Assembly: GCA_963764165.1 (NCBI GenBank)
Contig: CAVXRD010000002.1
Span: 1,760,001-1,824,000 of the forward strand
Direction of reading: 5' to 3'
Length of the DNA: 64,000 nucleotides
DNA from: an uncultured Verrucomicrobiae bacterium
GTDB lineage: Bacteria > Verrucomicrobiota > Verrucomicrobiia > Limisphaerales > Palsa-1400
Position numbers and translations under genes: made by a program
Shown here: in pieces, positions 53,734-64,000 of the stretch
Position numbering within the stretch: position 1 is the stretch's first letter
Layout of the letters: every line of letters starts with the position of its first letter
The notes under the pieces: generated by a model
Told to the model about the DNA's origin: nothing
Database searches by the model: none
What the model saw: only the letters and a program-made list of their open reading frames with translations

Positions 53734-54711
53734 TCACCCACCCTCAAACACTCCGTCCGGCAATTCCCGCACCACGCTCTTGGGGTCTTTGTCGTCGCGC
53801 AAACCGAGAAATACGGGCTGGCGAAGCTTGCCCTCGTTCGTCCATTCGGCGAACTTTATTTGACAGACCAGCTCGGGCTTCAGCCAGGCGCACCGGCGCA
53901 ATTCCGGGCCGCCGAATTCTCCCGCCACGCCGGTCGAGAACGGGCATTTGTTGGCTTTCAGTTTCTCGAATTTTCTGTGGAGTGATTCCAGCAGCGCCTC
54001 GTCAAATCCAGTTCCCACTTTGGAGGCGAAGGTCAGCATTCCATCCTTGTAATATCCAACGAGAAGGGCTCCGAAATGCTGCCGCGAGCCTTTCGGCGCA
54101 GTATAGCCGCCAATGACAAATTCCTGTTCGCCCACCGCCTTGACCTTCAGCCACGACGCGCTTCGCCGGTCCGGTTCATAGATCGAATCCGCGCGTTTGG
54201 CCATGATTCCCTCCAGGCCGAGCTGGCCGACCTCTTTCCAAATCGCCGCCGGAGAGCCGTCCAAGGCCGGGGACACCCGCAATTTGTCACTCCTGCCCCG
54301 CAGCGTTTTTTCCAGCGCTTTCTTCCGCTGCAACAGCGGGAGGCCGGTCAAATCCTTGCCGTCAAGATGAAGCATGTCGAATGCGTAATAGCGGATGCGC
54401 GAGCGGACGCTTTCGTCGCGCCCGCGATTTTGCAGAAGCTGGAACGAAGAGCGGCCCTGGTCATCCAGGGCAATAATCTCGCCGTCTAATATCACGCTCT
54501 CCGCGCGGATTTTCTGAACCTCCTCCACGATGTCCGGATGCTCCGCCGTCAGCTCGCGAGGCTTGCGGGAATAGAGGCGAACACGTTTTCCATCCTTGAT
54601 TGCAATCGCGCGGACACCGTCGAATTTTATTTCAAATATCCATCCCGGCCCTTCCGGCAAGGCGGCGGCCTGGCGGGACTTCATGGGTGGCACAAAGGAG
54701 ACATCTTTCAT
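53734..54711 (-). CDS. ATP-dependent DNA ligase, stand-alone LigD ligase domain
   Basis: EIKFDGVR motif I, LDGEI, FDML, EGIMAK, WLKVK, LRQPVFLGLRDDK. Confidence 0.92.
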   Translation of the reverse strand: MKDVSFVPPMKSRQAAALPEGPGWIFEIKFDGVRAIAIKDGKRVRLYSRKPRELTAEHPDIVEEVQKIRAESVILDGEIIALDDQGRSSFQLLQNRGRDESVRSRIRYYAFDMLHLDGKDLTGLPLLQRKKALEKTLRGRSDKLRVSPALDGSPAAIWKEVGQLGLEGIMAKRADSIYEPDRRSASWLKVKAVGEQEFVIGGYTAPKGSRQHFGALLVGYYKDGMLTFASKVGTGFDEALLESLHRKFEKLKANKCPFSTGVAGEFGGPELRRCAWLKPELVCQIKFAEWTNEGKLRQPVFLGLRDDKDPKSVVRELPDGVFEGG

Positions 54712-55838
54712 TTCTTCTTGACACGCCTGATGCTTTTCTGGAGGAGCTTTTCCAACGGCTCCGCCTGCTGCGCGAGGCGCTTTTGGAGGAAGCCCACGAC
54801 TGCGGCTTCTTCGGGGCGCAGCCGGTGGCGCTTCGCCTTTAGCTCGTGCTCGGCTCGCGCGCGGACGGCTTCAATCGTCGCGCCTTGCAGATAGCCGTTG
54901 AGGATTTCCGGGTGGATGTAGGATTTTTTGCAAATCGCCTTCGTGTTCCCGAGGCGCGCGGCGACGGATTCTATCGCCTGCGCGACATTTTTCTTCGCCT
55001 GGGCCAGCGAATCGAAGGCCGCGAATTCCCGCAGGGCAATTCCAGCCAGCACCGTTCCGGCCCAAGTGCGAAAATCCTTGGCCGTGAAATCGCCGCCAGA
55101 AATTTCCCCGAGATATTCGTTCACGTCTTCGGAGCGGATGTTTTGGCGCTGGCCGCTCTCGTCAATGTATTGAAATAAATCCTGTCCGGGAATATCGCGG
55201 CAGTTCCGCACAATTCGCGCGAGCCGCGCGTCGTGAATTTCCACCTCGTGCTCCTTGCCGCTCTTGCCGCGAAAATGAAATTGAATGGTCGAGCCGCGAA
55301 TGCCGACGTGGCGATTCTTCATGGTCGTCAGGCCATAAGAATGGTTCTCGTGCTCGTATTCCGTGTTGCCCACGCGGATCAAGCTGACTTCCAGCAATTG
55401 CACCACCGCCGCCAGCACTTGCCGTTTCGAGCGGGATGGCGCCTTCAAATCGCGGGCGACCTGGCGGCGGATGCGCGGCAGCGCCTTGGCGAAGGCCAGC
55501 ACGCGGTTGTATTTGGTGTCGTCGCGCGCTTCGCGCCAGCGCGGGTGGTAGCGATACTGTTTGCGCCCGCGATCGTCGCGTCCGGTGGCCTGCAAATGGC
55601 CGTTTTCAACCGGGCAAATCCAGACGTCGCGCCACGCTGGAGGAATGGCCAGCGATTTGATGCGTTTCAGGAGCGGCTCATCTGTGATTTTTTTCCCGTG
55701 CGCATCGAGATATTTGAATCCCTGCCCATTCAAACAGCGGGTGATTCCATCCTGCTCTCCCGTGACATAACGCAGGTGCGCGGTGCGGGCGAACTTCGCC
55801 CCATCGTCAGCCAGCTTTGACCCGCCGTTGTTGTGCAT
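54708..55838 (-). CDS. Bacterial DNA topoisomerase IB
   Basis: IPPAW, GRKQYRYH, RVGN..Y, FRGKSG, AKDFRTW, LGNT..ICKKSYIHP (catalytic Tyr). Confidence 0.95.
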   Translation of the reverse strand: MHNNGGSKLADDGAKFARTAHLRYVTGEQDGITRCLNGQGFKYLDAHGKKITDEPLLKRIKSLAIPPAWRDVWICPVENGHLQATGRDDRGRKQYRYHPRWREARDDTKYNRVLAFAKALPRIRRQVARDLKAPSRSKRQVLAAVVQLLEVSLIRVGNTEYEHENHSYGLTTMKNRHVGIRGSTIQFHFRGKSGKEHEVEIHDARLARIVRNCRDIPGQDLFQYIDESGQRQNIRSEDVNEYLGEISGGDFTAKDFRTWAGTVLAGIALREFAAFDSLAQAKKNVAQAIESVAARLGNTKAICKKSYIHPEILNGYLQGATIEAVRARAEHELKAKRHRLRPEEAAVVGFLQKRLAQQAEPLEKLLQKSIRRVKKK

Positions 55839-55899: not shown

Positions 55900-56610
55900 T
55901 TAGAGTGGCGTCACTTTCAAAGTGCGAAAGGCCACTGAGCCGTGATCGCCTTGCACATAAATCGGCCCGGTCGGATGTTCCTTGGCTTTGCGGCTGACGT
56001 TTGTGCCGTGAGCAATTTCAACATTGCTCTGCACCACTGTCCCATTCAATTCCACTTCCACGAATTTTGCGTTCGCGATCTTTTTGCCGGCGGCGTCGAA
56101 ACGCGGGGCGTGAAAAACAATTTTCAGCGTCTGCCATTCGCCGGGCTTCTTGCACGCGTTGGTCGAGGGCGGCGTCTCGCTGTAAACCGCTCCGCAATCC
56201 GTCTTGCCCGGATGCGGATTGCCGTAGCTGTCAAAAATCTGGATCTCGTAAATGTTCTCCAATTTGATGCCGGAATTCGAATCAGTCGAATTGCCCGGCG
56301 TCGATTTTCCAACCATGAACTCCGCCTCAACCATGCAATCCCCAAATTCGGCGATGGACGAAAGGTTTACCGTGCGGTTGGTGTTGATCATGTCGGTGCC
56401 CGGCCCGGAAACTTTCACCCGCGAGGGGTGCTCTTGGTCCCAGACAGCGGTTCCAAAGGTCCATTCGTTTGTTCCTTTGCCAACGACTTTCCATCCGTCC
56501 GTATTTTTGCCGTTGATGAGCGAGACAGATTTGGAGACATCTTGCGCGCGCGAAACCGCGGCGGCGGCCAGCATGAAAATGGCGATGGCGTTGCGAAGAG
56601 AGCAGTTCAT
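55900..56610 (-). CDS. DUF1080 family secreted protein
   Basis: SNSGI, YEIQIFDS, GEWQ, QGDHG.VAFR. Confidence 0.88.
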   Translation of the reverse strand: MNCSLRNAIAIFMLAAAAVSRAQDVSKSVSLINGKNTDGWKVVGKGTNEWTFGTAVWDQEHPSRVKVSGPGTDMINTNRTVNLSSIAEFGDCMVEAEFMVGKSTPGNSTDSNSGIKLENIYEIQIFDSYGNPHPGKTDCGAVYSETPPSTNACKKPGEWQTLKIVFHAPRFDAAGKKIANAKFVEVELNGTVVQSNVEIAHGTNVSRKAKEHPTGPIYVQGDHGSVAFRTLKVTPL

Positions 56611-56740
56611 GCAGCGAGATTGCGACGGACGCGCCGCCTCGTCAACATCGTTCAACCTGCTCGATCAAACAGGGCAAAATGAAGACGTTCGAACTCAAGA
56701 CAAACCGAGGGCGCTGAGATGGGAATTCTATTTGCCTTTC

Positions 56741-56975
56741 TTCTTCGTGTCCTTTGCGTACTTCCTGTTCAATTCTTTTGCCGCTTCTGGCTGGCCCTGA
56801 CGAGTGCCACGCGCGCCGCTCGGCCGCCGGATTTAAACAAGACTTTTCACAGCAAGGACACGAAGGACACGAAGAATCTTGTTTCACGCCTGTCTTGAGG
56901 AGCGACTTATGGATTTGAGATTGCGCAACCCGGGCAGCTTTTCCTCTGCGCTCTCGGTTTTACTCCTGTTCAAAA
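56741..56975. repeat. Cluster of short imperfect intergenic repeats
   Basis: CTTCGTGTCCTTTGCGTACTTCCTGTTCAA, inverted AAGGACACGAAGGACACGAAG, and TTTTACTCCTGTTCAA. Confidence 0.5.
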
Positions 56976-57195
56976 ATCCCTTCCATTGTAACCACTTTTG
57001 GCGGCAGGTTTATTGGTAGTGTCCTAATTTGAAATAGTGCTTTCATCTTGATTGTTATCCGGTCACAATTCAAGGTGTGGGATAATTTCAAAAAAGTCCA
57101 GCCATAAAAATCTTGTCAAGCCCTATTTTCAATAACCAACTTTCACTTGACAGAACCGCCTGCCAGAACGGTGGTAAAATTGCTGCATGATAAAA

Positions 57196-57576
57196 TTATT
57201 GTGGTGGACCTTGGTTTTGGGCGGTATGCTCGCTGGAGCATCGCCAATACGCCGCCTTGCGACCGGGCGGCATTCCCATCATAACCGGATTATGGCGGCA
57301 TTCTTTGCAATACGGGACCGCCTCGAATCCGTTGGCCGTTCGCTTCCACAGCACGCCGCCGAATTCTTTGAAGGCACCAACAATTGGCTGAGAATTCTTA
57401 AACTGTGCGCGAAGCTGGCCATTCTCGATTGCAAGGCGAGACACATCTGCTTCAAGCGAAACAACCTTCTCCGCGAGCAGCAGCGCCTTCTTCTCGAGAA
57501 GATCAACAACGTCTTTTGATAATCCGGCGGTGCTGCCTATGCGAATGATCTCTTTCGCTGTTTCAGCGGCTCCCAT
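57196..57576 (-). CDS. Hypothetical protein, coiled coil plus putative Zn finger
   Basis: Heptad-like N-half; YCKEC...WRC...H. Confidence 0.7.
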   Translation of the reverse strand: MGAAETAKEIIRIGSTAGLSKDVVDLLEKKALLLAEKVVSLEADVSRLAIENGQLRAQFKNSQPIVGAFKEFGGVLWKRTANGFEAVPYCKECRHNPVMMGMPPGRKAAYWRCSSEHTAQNQGPPQ

Positions 57577-57701
57577 AATTTGTCACGTTCATTGGTGTGC
57601 GATTATCAAAGCGCGGCATCCAATAGTCCAATGATTTATTTTGCCGGAGTCTTACATTTAAGACTTGCAAGATCAAGCAAAAATCATAAATGTTTGAACC
57701 A

Positions 57702-57920
57702 ATGAACAATCAATCTGGCCCATTCAAAGGCCCACCCCAGAACGCCAAGCAAAATCTTGAGGCGAAGTTGCTCAAGTTGGAGAAAAAGACATCGGATTTG
57801 GAGAAAAAAGTATCTCCATACGAGGCCAATATAGCGGAAATGAAGGTCGAATTGGCGGCGCAGAAGGCGAAAATAGATAAATTGCTTGCGGCGTTGAGTC
57901 ATAAAAAGGGGGAAGTGTAA
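57702..57920 (+). CDS. Small basic coiled-coil hypothetical protein
   Basis: LEAKLLKLEKKTSDLEKK heptads (alternative start 57690). Confidence 0.55.
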   Translation: MNNQSGPFKGPPQNAKQNLEAKLLKLEKKTSDLEKKVSPYEANIAEMKVELAAQKAKIDKLLAALSHKKGEV

Positions 57921-57998
57921 GAACTAACTCTGACCGCTTTGCGCGATCATCTGAAAAGGAAAGTTCGGAGAGGGGGTCGGCCTCGTCTAGGTATTCGC

Positions 57999-58238
57999 TT
58001 ATTTTGCCGCCACAATCGCAGCCCTAACCGCCGTCTCGGCGTCTTTCACCGGGGGAATCTTCAAGACCGCCACAAAGTTGATTCGCTCATCATTCTTGCC
58101 CTGTCTGGCGCACAGAATGGCATCGCCTTCTGTGAAATAACCACGGAAGCGCCAAACCCGGTTAAGAACATGAGCTTGGCCGGGTTTCGTTTTTATACTC
58201 CCGCAAAAAAAGAATCGCTTTGACTCGGTATTCGGCAT
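57999..58238 (-). CDS. Hypothetical protein, probably a 3' gene remnant
   Basis: The C-terminus FVAVLKIPPVKDAETAVRAAIVA looks protein-like; the 5' part overlaps another ORF. Confidence 0.4.
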   Translation of the reverse strand: MPNTESKRFFFCGSIKTKPGQAHVLNRVWRFRGYFTEGDAILCARQGKNDERINFVAVLKIPPVKDAETAVRAAIVAAK

Positions 58239-58353
58239 CGGCTTTGATGCGTTCAGCGCTGGCTAGGATTGACGCCTGTTCGGCGTTGAATGCCGGTGTT
58301 TCAGTTGTTGAACCATCAACGAATTCAATTAAGAAAACAGATACTAATTCCAT
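58162..58353 (-). CDS. 63-aa hypothetical protein
   Basis: Plausible beta-beta-alpha composition; its ATG abuts the divergent ORF. Confidence 0.35.
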   Translation of the reverse strand: MELVSVFLIEFVDGSTTETPAFNAEQASILASAERIKADAEYRVKAILFLREYKNETRPSSCS

Positions 58354-58605
58354 ATGAATGCTGTTGTTAAATTTGCCAACAAGACTCGCGGAATGTATGC
58401 CGCGAAAGCCGATGAAGGCGGGTTTGTTATTTTTGAACTGATGGATTCTCGCGAGCCACAGATCGGCGATACCGTTTCAGGCTCGTTTCTTTCAATGGGA
58501 AGCGGAACTTACCGCAATCTGACGCAGGGTGAAAAATTTGCAGTCTACACGCAGAACTTCGTAAACACTGTCGAGATGGCCAAGAAACAGTGTTTCTTGG
58601 CGTGA
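58354..58605 (+). CDS. 83-aa hypothetical protein (beta-rich, possibly OB-like)
   Basis: ATG-initiated ORF ending just inside the right TIR. Confidence 0.6.
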   Translation: MNAVVKFANKTRGMYAAKADEGGFVIFELMDSREPQIGDTVSGSFLSMGSGTYRNLTQGEKFAVYTQNFVNTVEMAKKQCFLA

Positions 58606-58697
58606 GTGATCCAATTGTTATCGGATCAAATTAGGACACTACCGGTTTATTCCGATCTTGGGTTGCAAAAGCCGTGAATGGGCCTACTGTGTTTTAC

Positions 58698-60425
58698 ATG
58701 GCAGAGTCCAAGAAGAAGTCCGCCGGTTCAGGTTCCGCAGCCAAGTCCCACCCCGCAGAAAGTTCGCCTCCACCGCAGCCGCCTGCGCCTTCCGTCGAAG
58801 AACTGATTCTCTCCCGCGAGCAACTGGAGGGTCTCTCGCTTTTGCAATTGGTGGACATGATCGTGTCAAAGCTGCCGCCGCGCCATTCGGCCATCATGGA
58901 CATGGTTTATTTGCGGGATCGAGTGGCGGAAGTGGAGGAGATCAATGACCAGGCGCGGCAAACGATTGAAAAACTCGATGCGGTCATTGAAAAGCTTCGC
59001 TCACCCGCCTTTCGTGTTGGAACTTTTCTCATGCCCGTCGAGCCGGACAAAGCCCACGTGTGCGCGGGCGGAACGGATTACGTGTGCCGCATAGACCCGC
59101 AACTGCCGCTGTCCAGCTTGCAAGTGGGGCAGCGCGTGTTGTTGAACGAAGCATTCGCAGTCGTGCTCGGCCTCGGATTTGATCGGAATGGCCCCATCGT
59201 TCGCATTGATGAATTGCTTTCGGGCGGACGTTTGAGGATTGGCCAGGAATCCGGCTTGATGTCCTCTGTTCTGTTGCGTTCCGCTTTGCTGGCCAAGGAA
59301 AAGCTCAAGTCGGGCATGGATGTCCGCCTCGACGCGAATCAACGCGTGGCGCTGGAGGTCATCGGCGTCGGCAAACGCATCGAACGCTCGCTGGAAACAG
59401 TTTCGGCGCTGCCGTGGTCTTCGATTGGCGGCCAGGACGAAGCGGTGCAGGGCATTCGCGATACCATTGAAATGCCGTTCCTCCATCGCGGATTATTCAA
59501 GCGATTCGAGCACACGGTGCCGAAGGGGTTCTTGCTGCACGGCCCGCCCGGTTGCGGCAAGACGCTCCTCGGCAAGGCGACGGCTTACAATTTGCGCCAG
59601 CAAATTCTCGCGGAAACCGGCGTCGACCATCCGGAATTTTTCCTGCACGTCAAAGGCCCGGAGATTCTCAACATGTGGGTCGGCGAATCCGAACGGCAGG
59701 TGCGCGATCTCTTCGCCCAATGCCGCGAGCGCGCCGCCGAAGGTTCGCTTGCGTTCCTGTTCATTGACGAGGCGGAATCGATTCTCGGCACCCGCCGGGC
59801 CGGCCGTTACAGCTCGATTCTCAGCACGCTCGTCCCGATGTTCTGCACGGAGATGGATGGATTGGAGCCGCTGCAAAACGTCGTCGTCATTCTCGCCTCC
59901 AATCGGGCGGATTTGATTGACCCCGCCATTTTGCGTCCTGGAAGAATTGATAGAAAAATCAAAGTCAACCGTCCAAATCAAGAAGGCGCGCAGCGCATTT
60001 ACGAAATTTATTTGAAAGATTCGCTGCCGCTCGCCGAACCGAAAGACGCCATGGCCAAAGCCATTACAGATTTGCATTACGCCAGGACGGTGGAGAACCA
60101 GTTTCTGGAAATCACCTACCGCAGCGGCAAGAAGGATTTTCTCTACCGCGGCGATCTTGCCAGCGGCGCGATCATCGCGGCGATTGTGGAACGGGCCAAG
60201 AGCCTGGCCATCAAGCGCTCGATTGACATCAAGCAGGAGACGCATCTGACCCGCGACGATCTCGCCAACGCCCTGCAAAAAGAATACGCCGAGAACGACC
60301 TGTTCCCGCCGACGGACATCACGGAGGATTGGCTGAAGTTGACGGACTTTGATCCGGAGAACGTCATCAAGCTCGCGCCGATTCGTCCGCGCAAAAAAGA
60401 GCTGATCGGATCGGGGATTGTTTGA
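58698..60425 (+). CDS. arc: Proteasome-associated AAA ATPase (ARC/Mpa family)
   Basis: Coiled coil plus OB interdomain (GQRVLLNE), IGGQD, GPPGCGKT, KGPEILNMWVGESERQVR, FIDEAES, LRPGRIDRKIKV; next to dop. Confidence 0.92.
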   Translation: MAESKKKSAGSGSAAKSHPAESSPPPQPPAPSVEELILSREQLEGLSLLQLVDMIVSKLPPRHSAIMDMVYLRDRVAEVEEINDQARQTIEKLDAVIEKLRSPAFRVGTFLMPVEPDKAHVCAGGTDYVCRIDPQLPLSSLQVGQRVLLNEAFAVVLGLGFDRNGPIVRIDELLSGGRLRIGQESGLMSSVLLRSALLAKEKLKSGMDVRLDANQRVALEVIGVGKRIERSLETVSALPWSSIGGQDEAVQGIRDTIEMPFLHRGLFKRFEHTVPKGFLLHGPPGCGKTLLGKATAYNLRQQILAETGVDHPEFFLHVKGPEILNMWVGESERQVRDLFAQCRERAAEGSLAFLFIDEAESILGTRRAGRYSSILSTLVPMFCTEMDGLEPLQNVVVILASNRADLIDPAILRPGRIDRKIKVNRPNQEGAQRIYEIYLKDSLPLAEPKDAMAKAITDLHYARTVENQFLEITYRSGKKDFLYRGDLASGAIIAAIVERAKSLAIKRSIDIKQETHLTRDDLANALQKEYAENDLFPPTDITEDWLKLTDFDPENVIKLAPIRPRKKELIGSGIV

Positions 60426-60484
60426 CGGCCATTGAGCCATTTCGTCCCGACTAGATAAGCCAGCCCGGGCGAAGAAATGACAAC

Positions 60485-62008
60485 ATGATCATCCAGTTTG
60501 GATCCGAAACCGAAATCGGAATCGCCCGCGAAAAGGAAGAGAATCTCGACGTCGTCGCTGAATCCATGGCGCTGGTGCGCAGCGCGACAAAATCGGGCGT
60601 GCTCATGCGCTGGGATTATAATTGCGAGGATCCGCATGCCGACATGCGCGGCTTCCACGTCCAGGAACTTCGCCAGGATACCGATGAGGCGAATTACTTT
60701 ACGCAGGATTCCGAGCGCGAGCTGACGTTCGTCGAAATCAAAAGCGATCTCGTGCTCGGGAACGGCGCGCGCTACTACAACGATCACGCCCACCCGGAAT
60801 ACTGCACGCCCGAATGCAGCACGGTGGAGGAATTGGTGGCCCACGACCGCGCCGGCGAGCGCATCCTGATGCGTTGCGCGCAAAAGCTTTCCGAGGAACG
60901 CGACTCGGATATTTGCCTTTACAAAAACAACACGGATTTTCGGGGGCATAGTTATGGCTGCCACGAAAATTACCTGCTGCCCCGCTCGCTGCCGTGGGAA
61001 AAATTGGCCCGCGGCATCCAGGCGTTTTTGGTGACGCGGCAGATTGTGGCGGGCGCCGGAAAATTCGCCTTCGAGGAAGAGGACAAATTCGTTTCACCGG
61101 GATTCCAGATTTCGCAGCGCAGCGATTTTTTCAGCGAATTGCAAAGCGTTGACACGATGCAGCGCCGGCCCATCGTCAACACGCGCGACGAACCGCACGC
61201 GAACCCGAATTTGTTCCGGCGCTTTCACGTCATTCTCGGCGATGCCAACATGTCGCCCTTCGCGACGCGGATGAAAATTGGAACGACCGCGCTGGTGCTG
61301 GAAGCCTTGGCGCGGGACCCGAAGCGGGTGTATTCCGTGCTGGCCGATCCGTTGCAGGCGCTCGCGGCGGTTTCGCGCGACGGGAAATTTCGCTGGGAGG
61401 TGGCGTTGCAGGACAAGAAAGCGTCAACCGCGCTTGAGTTGCAGCGCGAGTACATAGCGGCGGTGAGGGAGTTGTGCGATCTGAGCGACCCGTCAAAGGC
61501 GTCCATCTTGGATGATTGGAATCAAGTGCTCAACGATCTTGAGGTTGATCCGATGCGCTGCCGGGATCGGCTGGATTGGGCGGCAAAGCTGGCGCTTATC
61601 CGCGAATTTCAATCGTCGCAAAATGTCGGCGCAAACGACCCGTGGCTGCAAAGCCTCGATTTGGAATATCACCGCCTTGATCGCGAGAAGGGTTTATACT
61701 ATGCCCTTGAGCAATCCGGCACAATGCGAGGCATTCCCGACGATGCCCTCGTTCGCCGCGCCATCTCCGAGCCGCCGAAAACCACCCGCGCCTACATTCG
61801 CGGCCGGTGCATCCAAAAATTTGCCTCCGCCGTCGTCGCCGCCCAATGGGACCACATCACGCTGCAAGGAACGCGCGGCCCGCTGAAAATTTCACTCTTG
61901 GATGTTTTCACACCCGACGAAGTTGCCAGCTATGCGAAAGTGGTCGACGCCGCCAAGCGTCCGGACGATCTCGAATCGATTGCGGAATTGACATCCGACC
62001 CGCTTTAG
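60485..62008 (+). CDS. dop: Pup/UBact deamidase-depupylase Dop (PafA/Dop family)
   Basis: GSETEIG, Dop-loop RWDY..E.P..D.RGF, NGARYYNDHAHPEYCTPEC, KNNTD..GHSYGCHENY, RPIVNTRDEPHA, HVILGDANM. Confidence 0.9.
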   Translation: MIIQFGSETEIGIAREKEENLDVVAESMALVRSATKSGVLMRWDYNCEDPHADMRGFHVQELRQDTDEANYFTQDSERELTFVEIKSDLVLGNGARYYNDHAHPEYCTPECSTVEELVAHDRAGERILMRCAQKLSEERDSDICLYKNNTDFRGHSYGCHENYLLPRSLPWEKLARGIQAFLVTRQIVAGAGKFAFEEEDKFVSPGFQISQRSDFFSELQSVDTMQRRPIVNTRDEPHANPNLFRRFHVILGDANMSPFATRMKIGTTALVLEALARDPKRVYSVLADPLQALAAVSRDGKFRWEVALQDKKASTALELQREYIAAVRELCDLSDPSKASILDDWNQVLNDLEVDPMRCRDRLDWAAKLALIREFQSSQNVGANDPWLQSLDLEYHRLDREKGLYYALEQSGTMRGIPDDALVRRAISEPPKTTRAYIRGRCIQKFASAVVAAQWDHITLQGTRGPLKISLLDVFTPDEVASYAKVVDAAKRPDDLESIAELTSDPL

Positions 62009-62446
62009 CCCGCCTTCCGAGACATAGTCGGAGCCGGGCAGAATATGTAATCATCTCCGGTCCGATCCCTTTCTTCGATTGCTTCGATATTGCGCCCGTC
62101 CCACGGAAGACTTATGCTGGCAGCGTGCCTGCGGAAATTGAACCGATGCAGCAACCCGTGAGGAAGATCGTGGGACGTCCCGCAGACCTCTCAAAGCGCC
62201 TATCGCAGGTTGAAGACCTGACTAGGTTTGCCAAGAAACACGCGCATGGAGCGTTCATCCGAGCCGAGGGAGAATATTTCCCAGTTCGAAAAACTGTTGG
62301 CCGCTCTCGCGGCCGCGGGCATTTATTTCGGACGTAATCGCTCTCCAGCAAATCGTGTCCAGTCAGCGGGAGTGACGACAAAACGAGGTTTTAAACAATG
62401 GCGCCGGGCTCTCTCTCGGCAGGGCGGTGATAGCCCTGCGGCAAAG

Positions 62447-62599
62447 TGCGGAAAATTAACGCGCAATTTGGCAAAATTTAACGCATCCTCGCAAATAGCC
62501 CAAGCTGGGCAATCTACCCCAGTTTCATCATAATGCGTTGATAATCAGAGATTAACCATTATACCATGTGCCGTCGCACACTATGGCATTCGCCATGCT
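62447..62599 (+). promoter_or_regulatory. Sigma54-type promoter with IHF site and tandem upstream repeats
   Basis: TGGCATTCGCCATGCT (GG-N10-GC, 62584-99); IHF consensus TATCAACGCATTA on the minus strand (62531-43); repeats TGCGGAAAATTAACGCG / TGGCAAAATTTAACGCA 22 bp apart. Confidence 0.65.
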
Positions 62600-62646
62600 A
62601 TATAAAACTCAAGGCGATTCAATTCAGCAGACGCCAAAGAGGTGAT

Positions 62647-62859
62647 ATGAATAAAGTAAACAGAATGACAGTGCATCCCCAGCTTGAAGAATTGCCCCGC
62701 CTGCAAGTGGTGACTCCGAGGAATGGCGAGGTCAAACGGCAGGCGCCGCTGGCCGCTCCGCTGCAATTCCCATCGAACTTGTATAAGCGGGTTCCGCGCG
62801 CGGAGACGGTGGTTCTTGGCTGGAAAACCCGCGCGACGCGGCTGGCCAAAGGCGAATAG
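62647..62859 (+). CDS. 70-aa small protein ending in -AKGE
   Basis: Strong SD AGAGGTGA just upstream of the ATG; downstream of a sigma54-type promoter. Confidence 0.65.
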   Translation: MNKVNRMTVHPQLEELPRLQVVTPRNGEVKRQAPLAAPLQFPSNLYKRVPRAETVVLGWKTRATRLAKGE

Positions 62860-63095
62860 GCCCGAGTCCCATCCCCGCGGAAAAAGGACGCAACGGGGAA
62901 AAATTTGTCGTTTCCTTTGTATGAAACGCCCCGTTTTCGATCCTCGAAGCCGAAATGTAGCCGGTCTGTAGCCACTTTGTTGCCTTTTGTAGCTGTTTAA
63001 GTGCCTCGCCTTCAACGATGTAACGGTTGTAGCCGCTTTTTGGAGATTATATAATTATCTGCTGCCCCCGCAATTCCATCCGGGCCAAACTGCCG

Positions 63096-63977
63096 TTAAT
63101 CGGGTTGGCGCAGAGCATCCGGCAACAAGGGTGTCGCGCCTTCCCGCGAACACACAAAACGGGCGACTTCATTGGCGTGCTTGTTAATCGCCTCCAGCGA
63201 TTTTCCCCTTAGCATCCCCATCGCCAGCGCGGCGGTGAACGCGTCTCCCGCCCCCACGGTGTCTTTGACAACGACAGGCGCGCCCGGGTCATCCGCCCAT
63301 TTCCCCTCGGAATACAGGAGGCTTCCGTGCGCGCCTCGTGTCAAACAAACGAGCTTCAATTGATACTGCCCGGCAAGCTGCTCCAATTGCTCGCGCACCG
63401 TGCCGCGAAGATGGAACATGGGCGCTAGCGCCGGCAATTCGCCGTCGTTGAATTTCACCACACTGGCCAGGCCCAGCGACATTTTGATGATGTCTTCGCT
63501 GAAATAGGTTTGACGCAAATTGAGATCCAGAATCCGCAAAGCGCCGGGGCGGGCGGAACCCAGCAGCGCATGGATGGTGGCGCGTGAAGGTTCGCATCGC
63601 TGGGCCAGCGTGCCGAACGCGACCGCATCCGCTTCGCCCATGGCGAGCACCGCGCTGCCAGCCACCGCGAGGCGATCCCACGCGACGCCTTCGTGGATCG
63701 TGAAGGCGGGCTGGCCGTCATCAGCTAGTTTCACGGTGACAGTTCCCGTGGGAGCCGCCGGATCCAATTGAACATCGGAGATGGGAAGGCCCAAGGTTTG
63801 CAGGCGCCTGAGCAATTCAACGCCCAGCGCGTCCGACCCGACGCGCGAAATCACGCGGCTGCGCGCGCCGAGGGATTGCGCGTGAAAGGCAAAATTCGCG
63901 GGCGCTCCGCCCATTTGTTTTCCGGTGGGCAGCAGGTCCCAGAGAATTTCGCCAAGGCCGATAACACTATAGCTCAT
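63096..63977 (-). CDS. PfkB family carbohydrate kinase (fructokinase-like)
   Basis: GEILWD, GGAPANFA, DLNLR, DTVGAGDAF. Confidence 0.93.
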   Translation of the reverse strand: MSYSVIGLGEILWDLLPTGKQMGGAPANFAFHAQSLGARSRVISRVGSDALGVELLRRLQTLGLPISDVQLDPAAPTGTVTVKLADDGQPAFTIHEGVAWDRLAVAGSAVLAMGEADAVAFGTLAQRCEPSRATIHALLGSARPGALRILDLNLRQTYFSEDIIKMSLGLASVVKFNDGELPALAPMFHLRGTVREQLEQLAGQYQLKLVCLTRGAHGSLLYSEGKWADDPGAPVVVKDTVGAGDAFTAALAMGMLRGKSLEAINKHANEVARFVCSREGATPLLPDALRQPD

Positions 63978-64000
63978 GCCACGAGCTATATGGTTTACTC

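Follow-up and report, generated by a model that had tools for sequence, protein, structure and literature searches.

Gene content of the locus

The window, the whole 64,000-nt stretch of DNA analysed here, carries adjacent forward-strand genes for the UBact-system proteasomal AAA+ ATPase ARC/Mpa (58698..60425, +, 575 aa) and the deamidase/deconjugase Dop (60485..62008, +, 507 aa), as the initial annotation had read them. The ARC ORF opens with an ATG at 58698 and matches PF00004 and TIGR03689, the latter at 417.9 bits, below the cut-off of 504.75; its proteasomal OB domains, PF17758 and PF16450, each score above cut-off. The Dop ORF matches PF03136 at 504.7 bits, and scores 453.7 bits with the Dop model TIGR03688 versus 344 bits with the PafA model TIGR03686. 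Beyond dop lies a spacer (62009..62450) that is single-copy in the genome. It exceeds its counterpart in most relatives by about 400 nt; in these the enhancer element described below begins at the dop stop codon or close to it. A small gene (62647..62859, +) then begins 638 nt past the dop stop, with AGAGGTGAT immediately 5' of its ATG. It encodes 70 aa, among them 7 Pro and 8 Arg, and ends in TRLAKGE, in agreement with the earlier description of a Pro/Arg-rich ORF with an SD sequence. An Rfam scan of 56600-64000 returned one weak miRNA match (E 0.19), which we disregarded.

A split UBact-proteasome system

The initial annotation noted no Pup- or UBact-type ORF in the window, and left open either a new modifier or a split operon. 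Our six-frame scan for Pup/UBact-like endings likewise found none convincing in the 64,000 nt, and the same scan of the source genome (G000) gave one convincing UBact, on another contig, C4. This UBact (C4:55606-55436) scores 84.6 bits with NF033388 against a cut-off of 35, ends in RTGQ, and heads a canonical ubact-prcB-prcA-pafA cluster (G000:C4:55606-52472), which settles the matter in favor of the split operon and answers the earlier call for a genome-wide search. Homologues of ARC, Dop, PrcB, PrcA and PafA are all encoded in the genome, matching actinobacterial models below the curated cut-offs. C4 also carries the genome's other Dop/PafA paralogue, which scores 277 bits with the Dop model and 265 with the PafA model, both below cut-off; gene order and elimination identify it as the probable PafA, a calling that rests on position.

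In Gram-negative phyla the UBact cluster (NCBIfam NF033388) has the order mpa/arc-dop-ubact-prcB-prcA-pafA, and it was reportedly described by Lehmann and colleagues in 2017. All six of these genes are in the source genome, with the RTGQ end and with canonical order inside each half, but they do not form a single cluster: arc-dop lies on contig C2 and the rest on C4. The break between dop and ubact runs throughout the host's family, with an unrelated small gene after dop, whereas the six-gene order is intact in other families of the order (G027, G029, G038). Among 31 family genomes, ubact is found in 27, its product ends in RTGQ in 27/27, and arc or dop lies in the ubact locus in 0/27. Of 78 named dop loci, 41 are followed by ubact, 17 by the small gene and 16 by neither, with 4 too short to tell; the two never occur together (0 loci). 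The window thus holds the arc-dop half of a split, otherwise ordinary UBact-proteasome system.

The enzymes here are homologous to those of the actinobacterial Pup-proteasome system (Pup, Dop, PafA, Mpa, PrcAB), while the tag is UBact. The available part of one account gives Pup a length of 50-90 aa, a C-terminal G[EQ] and a gene adjoining a PafA paralogue (PMC2588565), and that of another has PafA activating a C-terminal Glu and Dop deamidating Gln (PMC7947786). By analogy with pupylation, UBact-RTGQ would be deamidated by the window's Dop and ligated by the C4 PafA, and UBact-tagged proteins would be delivered by the window's ARC to the C4 proteasome.

A small-protein family

The small gene belongs to an uncharacterised family that is single-copy in 28 of the 31 family genomes. 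Comparison of homologues gives the motif R51-x-E53-x3-L57-G-W59-x2-R62-x2-R65-L66 in the source protein, and R-x-E-x3-L-x-W-x2-R-x2-R-L is invariant at 28/28 loci. The codons of this motif vary synonymously, with entropies of 0.87, 0.63 and 1.40 bits at codon positions 1, 2 and 3 (28 loci); the seven invariant residues use up to six synonymous codons each, and the ATG and reading frame are kept in 28/28. These comparisons indicate that the ORF is a real protein-coding gene, as had been assumed of it.

Family members are 50-76 aa long. An AlphaFold2 model of the source protein is of low confidence (pLDDT 64, pTM 0.21) and mostly coil, with C-terminal helices. Four charged residues and the Trp are invariant, motif and tail together carry a net charge of +3, and P-x-[LF]-x-[VI]-[VILM] is present in 41/52 homologues; we take the P-x-L-x-V-V segment to be reminiscent of ClpX-docking motifs. 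The small protein has no match in Pfam, NCBIfam or PDB, Foldseek with its model finds nothing in PDB at E <= 0.001, and a profile search of PDB sequences also finds nothing. Pfam gave 2 single weak matches on 52 family members, and the 70-aa query had no usable match in the ESM Atlas. One homologue, P0007, resembled AAA_23 ATPase fragments there (0.92-0.93, about 135 shared features), a recognition below threshold that we dismiss, as it was probably produced by coincidence from a Walker-A-like stretch lacking G-K-[ST]. No relative turned up when the 70-aa protein alone was used to scan the named genomes. One weak match outside the family was seen in G207 (E 0.007, residues 4-50). A second small-gene match in G023, L064, was dropped as spurious, since it scored 20 bits and had neither the motif nor a sigma-54 box. 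A search of mainly open-access main texts found no paper on the small gene, the enhancer motif or a verrucomicrobial pilus regulon; the supplementary tables of PMC12316311 may list these sigma-54 sites.

Promoter elements common to the small gene and type IV pilus genes

A predicted upstream activator site (62451..62487, +) contains two degenerate half-site copies, AAATTAACGCGC at 62453 and AAATTTAACGCATC at 62474, of the family consensus AWTTTCACGCA. The half-site element TTTCACGCA is one half of the palindrome TTTCACGCA-N3-TGCGTGAAA, and the small gene's second half-site is degenerate, with 2-8 mismatches to the full palindrome. With at most one mismatch, the half-site occurs in 25/27 small-gene loci, the same loci from which the consensus was derived (enhancer counts leave out L061, whose contig ends at the sigma-54 box). 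Ranked by a matrix trained without the source genome, the site in the window comes third of 362 sigma-54-like sites. An IHF-like site, TATCAACGCATTA (62531..62543, −), matches WATCAAN4TTR, which we take as the IHF consensus; it recurs with at most one mismatch in 12/27 loci, against a mean of 2.4 and a maximum of 7 in 200 shuffles. A sigma-54 -24/-12 box, TGGCATTCGCCATGCT (62584..62599, +), follows; such a box is found upstream of 28/28 homologues, among them 9/9 copies unlinked from dop, versus 38 of 858 background windows of equal size, and rpoN is present in the source genome.

Across the family, the enhancer element also lies 5' of the sigma-54 boxes of pilM, of pilB-pilT-pilB-pilC and of a prepilin-type gene. 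A matrix built from small-gene upstream DNA alone (trained without L055) ranks pilM first and the prepilin-type gene second of the 362 sites. Upstream of pilM its score exceeds 15 bits at 25/28 loci, a level reached in 0/28 coding controls and in 0.29% of the 4161 upstream windows, and the GG-N10-GC box precedes pilM in 27/28 (the pilM count excludes L077, with 67 nt upstream), the small gene in 28/28 and pilB in 29/30. Tandem sigma-54 boxes precede pilB, and the palindrome (<=4 mismatches) occurs upstream of it in 14/30 loci versus 0/30 controls. Of the 12 best palindrome loci in four other genomes, 9 lie in front of pilM, pilB or the pilin gene. Neither enhancer nor sigma-54 box was found upstream of arc, ubact or the pilC-like gene described below. 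A loose enhancer plus sigma-54 pattern run across the order was noisy (120/301 genomes, with the control also frequent) and is not used as evidence. Since the sigma-54 enhancer motif is common to its promoter and to type IV pilus genes, the small gene is likely switched on with pili. The best reading of these patterns is a PilR-like pilus regulon with one small member, whose function we infer.

The likely activator is a receiver-AAA-HTH protein encoded beside the pilC-like gene (G000:C2:1507290-1508780), the best candidate among 12 enhancer-binding proteins, one of which (C1:721200) our script missed. It is present in 29/31 genomes, with the pilC-like neighbor at 22/29 loci. In G009 this candidate is absent, and so are the small gene, the pilM enhancer and the sigma-54 boxes of pilM and pilB. 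The choice is nevertheless not unique by this pattern: a second enhancer-binding protein (C2:936916-938343) fits the same absence in G009 and is present in 4/4 others tested. In G017, whose assembly also lacks the ubact half, the small gene and the pilM enhancer are present but the candidate has no match.

Discussion

Observed gene content, the split, C-terminal variability, the protein motif and shared promoter elements lead us to a reading in which we have reasonable confidence. The window holds half of the UBact system, and the 70-aa gene is a separate unit with its own sigma-54 box and enhancer, likely co-activated with type IV pilus genes, whose product would be no tag but a small protein of the cytoplasm that assists piliation or feeds back on it. 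A PilR-like receiver-AAA-HTH activator would bind TTTCACGCA half-sites 100-155 nt upstream, IHF may bend the DNA at these promoters, and sigma-54 polymerase would then transcribe pilin, the pilM operon, the pilB operon and the small gene. How the protein would act is the weakest part: we tentatively suggest, with slightly less than even confidence, that the mostly disordered chain binds one conserved partner via its invariant basic C-terminal helical motif, most likely a pilus motor ATPase or the activator.

The protein might be co-regulated with pili and act elsewhere, as a general factor of a surface-lifestyle switch that binds nucleic acid, a nucleotide messenger (e.g. c-di-GMP), RNA polymerase or a protease. 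As read from ORF starts, the gene is monocistronic and never beside pilus genes in 28 loci, and the invariant charged residues and Trp, the basic motif and tail, and the P-x-[LF]-x-[VI]-[VILM] segment would all suit such binding. However, the other identified promoters carrying both elements are those of pilus genes, and the protein resembles no known binding domain, so we consider this alternative unlikely.

Position suggests another role, that of a regulator or adaptor of ARC/Dop coupling the pilus programme to UBact-dependent degradation. The small gene sits where ubact does in other families, and of the dop linkage raised by the initial annotation a part stands: 27 genomes are informative, and it adjoins dop in 18 of them, which span six genera and differ in the other neighbors, and is unlinked in 9 (the genomes compared throughout are kin and so not independent). 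Near the dop stop there is no + strand terminator-like site, apart from one weak GC stem at 62306; given this and the adjacency, read-through from arc-dop into the small gene is possible, a point that weighs against the piliation reading. Against a role with ARC and Dop, G005 and G023 (assemblies 81% and 90% complete) keep the small gene and its promoter with arc, dop/pafA, proteasome and ubact unmatched, and arc and ubact are preceded by neither promoter element. In most relatives the enhancer begins right at the dop stop, where a breakpoint could scarcely fit, and the synteny is thereby accounted for without invoking function. G009 cannot separate a pilus link from a UBact link, because the UBact system is missing there too. 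We regard this adaptor role as improbable.

The modifier proposed by the initial annotation, conjugated via a C-terminal Glu, fits the size (50-76 versus 50-90 aa), largely disordered model and place after dop of the 70-aa protein, and the GE end that it has in the source genome. The conserved G[EQ] end of Pup is missing: GE or GQ ends 1/61 homologous proteins, the query itself, and E ends 2/61 (counts exclude P0014, 4046 aa and with no matched stretch); likewise, among the 28 genomic copies only the query ends so. Other C-termini include GD, AE, KK, HR, RK, IK, VK, KA and SR, two homologues at 85-86% identity end in GD and AE, and the tail after the motif varies from 2 to 12 residues. GE or GQ ends 24 of 3280 long ORFs of the source genome (about 0.7%), and homologues fail to retain it, so the terminal GE is a chance feature, as the earlier annotation had itself allowed. 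It had also seen no other resemblance to Pup or UBact, and hhalign against a 4-sequence UBact alignment gives a probability of 0.1%, alongside the lack of Pfam and NCBIfam matches. With a canonical UBact on C4, variable C-termini and a third of informative genomes (9/27) unlinked from dop, the very outcomes that the initial annotation had named as refuting a modifier, we reject the 70-aa protein as a tag; a second, divergent modifier is refuted at the family level and very improbable. A conserved regulatory DNA or RNA element in place of a protein gene, which the low-confidence fold and variable middle might suggest, can practically be dismissed given seven invariant residues in synonymous codons, the highest entropy at third positions, a kept ATG and frame, and no Rfam match of note.

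Placed beside sigma-54/PilR-type pilus regulons, the piliation reading finds several parallels. In the available parts of the sources, these are Xanthomonas RpoN2-PilRX (PMC7170775), Desulfovibrio DVU2114, with palindromic sites reported for Desulfovibrio regulators (PMC3333781), and the PilR proteins of Pseudomonas, Myxococcus and Geobacter cited in them (PMC7170775/PMC3333781). As far as those descriptions go, the likenesses are pilin and pilus-assembly operons preceded by sigma-54 boxes, a pilus gene with a receiver-AAA-HTH activator (here a candidate) encoded next to it, and palindromic sites of a kind similar to those of Desulfovibrio. The differences, to the same extent, are the phylum, Verrucomicrobiota, with an activator that is a candidate only; the 9-bp inverted repeat TTTCACGCA-N3-TGCGTGAAA, not met in the comparison descriptions; the tandem sigma-54 boxes before pilB; and a family-restricted 50-76 aa member without known homologue.

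No such new protein tag exists, and the proteasome locus represents a known system whose genes have been split. The value of the locus lies in a predicted regulon of a soil lineage that is abundant and mostly uncultured, comprising an enhancer motif, four target promoters and a candidate activator, and an unannotated small-protein family gains its first functional context and a sharp motif. A bolder picture, possible if doubtful, is that in soil Limisphaerales one sigma-54 enhancer motif drives the entire type IV pilus programme (pilin, PilM operon, PilB/PilT motors), and that one family added to this programme a 65-residue disordered regulator docking on the pilus motor or activator via the R-x-E-x3-L-G-W-x2-R-x2-R-L helix; its seat at the former place of ubact might in addition link the control of pili to degradation by the UBact-proteasome system. 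If true, this docking regulator would represent a novel type of small protein controlling pili.

Promoter elements shared with type IV pilus genes

The 70-aa ORF of the window (62647-62859, C-terminus TRLAKGE) begins 638 nt past dop and is preceded by AGAGGTGAT. We find this small gene in 28 of 31 related Limisphaerales genomes (the family), with one true copy in each; the three genomes without it are 95%, 73% and 64% complete. When 300 genomes were sampled evenly across the order and 20 candidates were scored in each, it occurred in 6 of 7 family members, with a weak match in 1 of 293 others. A TGGCA-N8-GCT (sigma-54) box lies upstream exactly once in 28/28 loci, against a background of 38 in 858 control windows, and a conserved element, AWTTTCACGCA, is found 102-153 nt upstream of that box. 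The enhancer half-site TTTCACGCA, allowing at most one mismatch, is present in 25 of 27 loci, and 12 of 27 carry an IHF-like site between element and box, versus 2.4 in shuffles, as called with the IHF consensus. The source genome G000 (7.0 Mb, 97% complete, the window being on contig C2) encodes a single rpoN along with 12 strong enhancer-binding proteins.

The small gene and the pilus genes have promoter elements in common. When a matrix trained on small-gene upstream DNA of relatives was run over the 362 sigma-54-like sites of G000, the small gene (19.8 bits) ranked behind C2:2268981 (27.2 bits), before a PilM operon whose last gene is a secretin, and C1:1278344 (22.8 bits), before a prepilin-type gene; the next site scored 13.2 bits. 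A third copy of the element lies upstream of pilB-pilT-pilB-pilC. Across the family, scores above 15 bits occur before pilM in 25/28 loci vs 0/28 coding controls, the background being 0.29% of 4161 upstream windows, and a sigma-54 box precedes pilM in 27/28. The pilM site is the palindrome TTTCACGCA-N3-TGCGTGAAA. At pilB, 29 of 30 loci have a sigma-54 box, usually two, and the palindrome is found in 14/30 vs 0/30 controls. The top palindrome loci (n=15, five genomes) precede pilM, pilB or pilin in 9 of 12 cases outside genome G009 and in 0 of 3 within it. G009, also without the small gene, is the sole exception at pilM and pilB.

Several features of these loci were observed in passing. G009 (95% complete) has pilM and pilB, but neither is preceded by a sigma-54 box, and the pilM enhancer, the small gene, the UBact system and two enhancer-binding proteins are missing as well; its pilus control has apparently been rewired. 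Upstream of pilB (loci L096, L250-L279), most members have two sigma-54 boxes, ~290 and 620-700 nt away, with the enhancer between them; in G000 a repeat-like insert increases the spacing. PilM (L095:4962-6836; 625 aa, PilM domain at residues 10-349) is probably fused to a PilN-like part, and the two genes that follow have no Pfam match. L096:2012-6573 is one operon with pilT between two PilB-type ATPases, both with an MshEN domain from whose N-terminus the c-di-GMP motif RLG seems to be absent. The combination of full palindrome and sigma-54 box recurs in families of the order that have no small gene, e.g. G139, G096, G158, G266, G275 and G125, the last with four such sites.

A candidate activator and a predicted regulon

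The best candidate for the activator of these promoters is the enhancer-binding protein C2:1507290-1508780, found in 29/31 genomes with no match in G009 or G017; a pilC-like gene adjoins it in 22 of 29 loci. The choice is not unique, a second enhancer-binding protein being likewise missing from G009. In G000 the preceding pilC-like gene (L219:2932-4238, or C2:1505931-1507237) spans two overlapping frames; since similarity to relatives ends at about residue 242, it is frameshifted in the assembly, either by error or as a pseudogene.

We consider it likely from the sequence that a PilR-like activator, IHF and sigma-54 jointly turn on pilin, pilM, pilB and the small gene, whose degenerate second half-site would give it an activation threshold unlike that of the pilus genes. 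More tentatively, at slightly under an even chance, the small protein may act on piliation, with a pilus ATPase or the activator as the docking partner of its invariant basic helix. That it is co-regulated with pili and acts elsewhere seems unlikely.

The small gene, dop and the modifier proposal

The initial annotation proposed the product of the small gene, 3' of dop, as a candidate divergent protein-tagging modifier. Linkage to dop is inconstant: dop lies within the locus in 18 of 28 cases and is absent from 9, the remaining locus ending with its contig. The 9 unlinked copies retain the sigma-54 box (9/9) and mostly the half-site (7/9). The small gene is also kept in G005 and G023, where arc, dop/pafA, the proteasome and ubact gave no match (genomes 81% and 90% complete), and the element precedes neither arc nor ubact. 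The small gene is thus predicted to have its own promoter, independent of the proteasome genes. In most genomes with linkage the dop stop codon coincides with the start of the element, an arrangement that may account for the gene's position beside dop without a functional tie; a role as ARC/Dop regulator is very unlikely.

The C-terminus also varies. Two homologues 85-86% identical to the protein end GD and AE, and searching 1.84 billion representatives with a profile returned 60 matches. Among 61 short proteins from both searches (one 4046-aa match, which had no matched stretch, being excluded), the query alone ends in GE/GQ and two end in E; the tail beyond the conserved motif is 2-12 residues, its commonest last residue being Lys (21/52). 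Pup-type tags, as described in PMC7947786 and PMC2588565, need a C-terminal Glu, or a Gln that Dop deamidates, so a family with such variable ends cannot be a Pup-type tag. The -GE ending is chance, as had been suspected, 60 of the 61 proteins ending otherwise. Together with a UBact profile comparison at 0.1% probability and a canonical UBact on contig C4, the variable C-termini rule out the modifier, which we hold extremely improbable.

The ORF is a real gene: R-x-E-x3-L-x-W-x2-R-x2-R-L is conserved in 28/28 copies with codons varying synonymously, which leaves a non-coding element next to no chance. We found this motif in no other G000 gene, no match to NCBIfam or Pfam, and no PDB match by structure or sequence. 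AlphaFold2 gives a low-confidence coil with short C-terminal helices, and databases name family members 'hypothetical protein' or not at all.

A split UBact-proteasome system

The window locus belongs to a known system that is split here. As initially annotated, an ARC-type ATPase (ATG 58698, stop 60425; 417.9 bits to TIGR03689, with matches to both proteasomal OB domains) neighbours Dop (60485-62008; 453.7 bits to the Dop model vs 344 to PafA). A tblastn search with Dop found a single G000 paralogue, 34% identical and located on C4; ~3 kb from it, a six-frame scan picked out a 56-aa ORF ending RYRQRTGQ. The order there, on the minus strand from 55606 to 52472, is ubact-prcB-prcA-pafA, a canonical cluster that bears out the split-operon alternative and speaks against a new modifier. 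UBact scores 84.6 bits to NF033388 (cut-off 35), and PrcB and PrcA match actinobacterial models under cut-off; the last gene is named PafA by position and elimination, as its Dop and PafA scores are close (277 and 265 bits). UBact systems are already catalogued (NF033388).

UBact is present in 27/31 family genomes and ends RTGQ in 27/27, with arc/dop near ubact in 0/27 loci (flanks of at most 1.5 kb, the upstream one being short in two). Elsewhere in the order, in the families of G027, G029 and G038, ubact lies directly 3' of dop. Of 78 named dop loci, almost all with titles of Verrucomicrobiota metagenome assemblies and some with Limisphaerales titles, 41 are followed by ubact, 17 by the small gene and 16 by neither, with 4 too short; the two never occur together. 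The 17 come largely from species already in the family set, hence they are not independent. Neither gene lies downstream of dop in ten more distant loci (L301-L308, L321, L330, L341; 50-54% identity), several of them with Chthoniobacterales titles, which probably represent a separate operon split.

Gene content 5' of arc varies between relatives. In the window, 57000-58650 is low in GC (47% vs 57% for the genome), and is probably acquired DNA; several short ORFs in it (57196-57576 minus, 57690-57920, 58354-58605) match no family. An adjacent minus-strand pair of ORFs at 53734-55838 resembles ATP-dependent DNA ligase and topoisomerase IB, as judged from the translations.

Implications for pilus control

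Sigma-54/PilR control of pili is known, according to the reports on Xanthomonas (PMC7170775) and Desulfovibrio (PMC3333781) and others cited there; here the same scheme is predicted from sequence. In its main text, a sigma-54 regulon survey (PMC12316311) treats Verrucomicrobiota in passing only, with pilM absent. We found no published account of the enhancer motif or the small gene in literature that covers few subscription papers. The new result is modest: a predicted pilus regulon that would include a small uncharacterised member.
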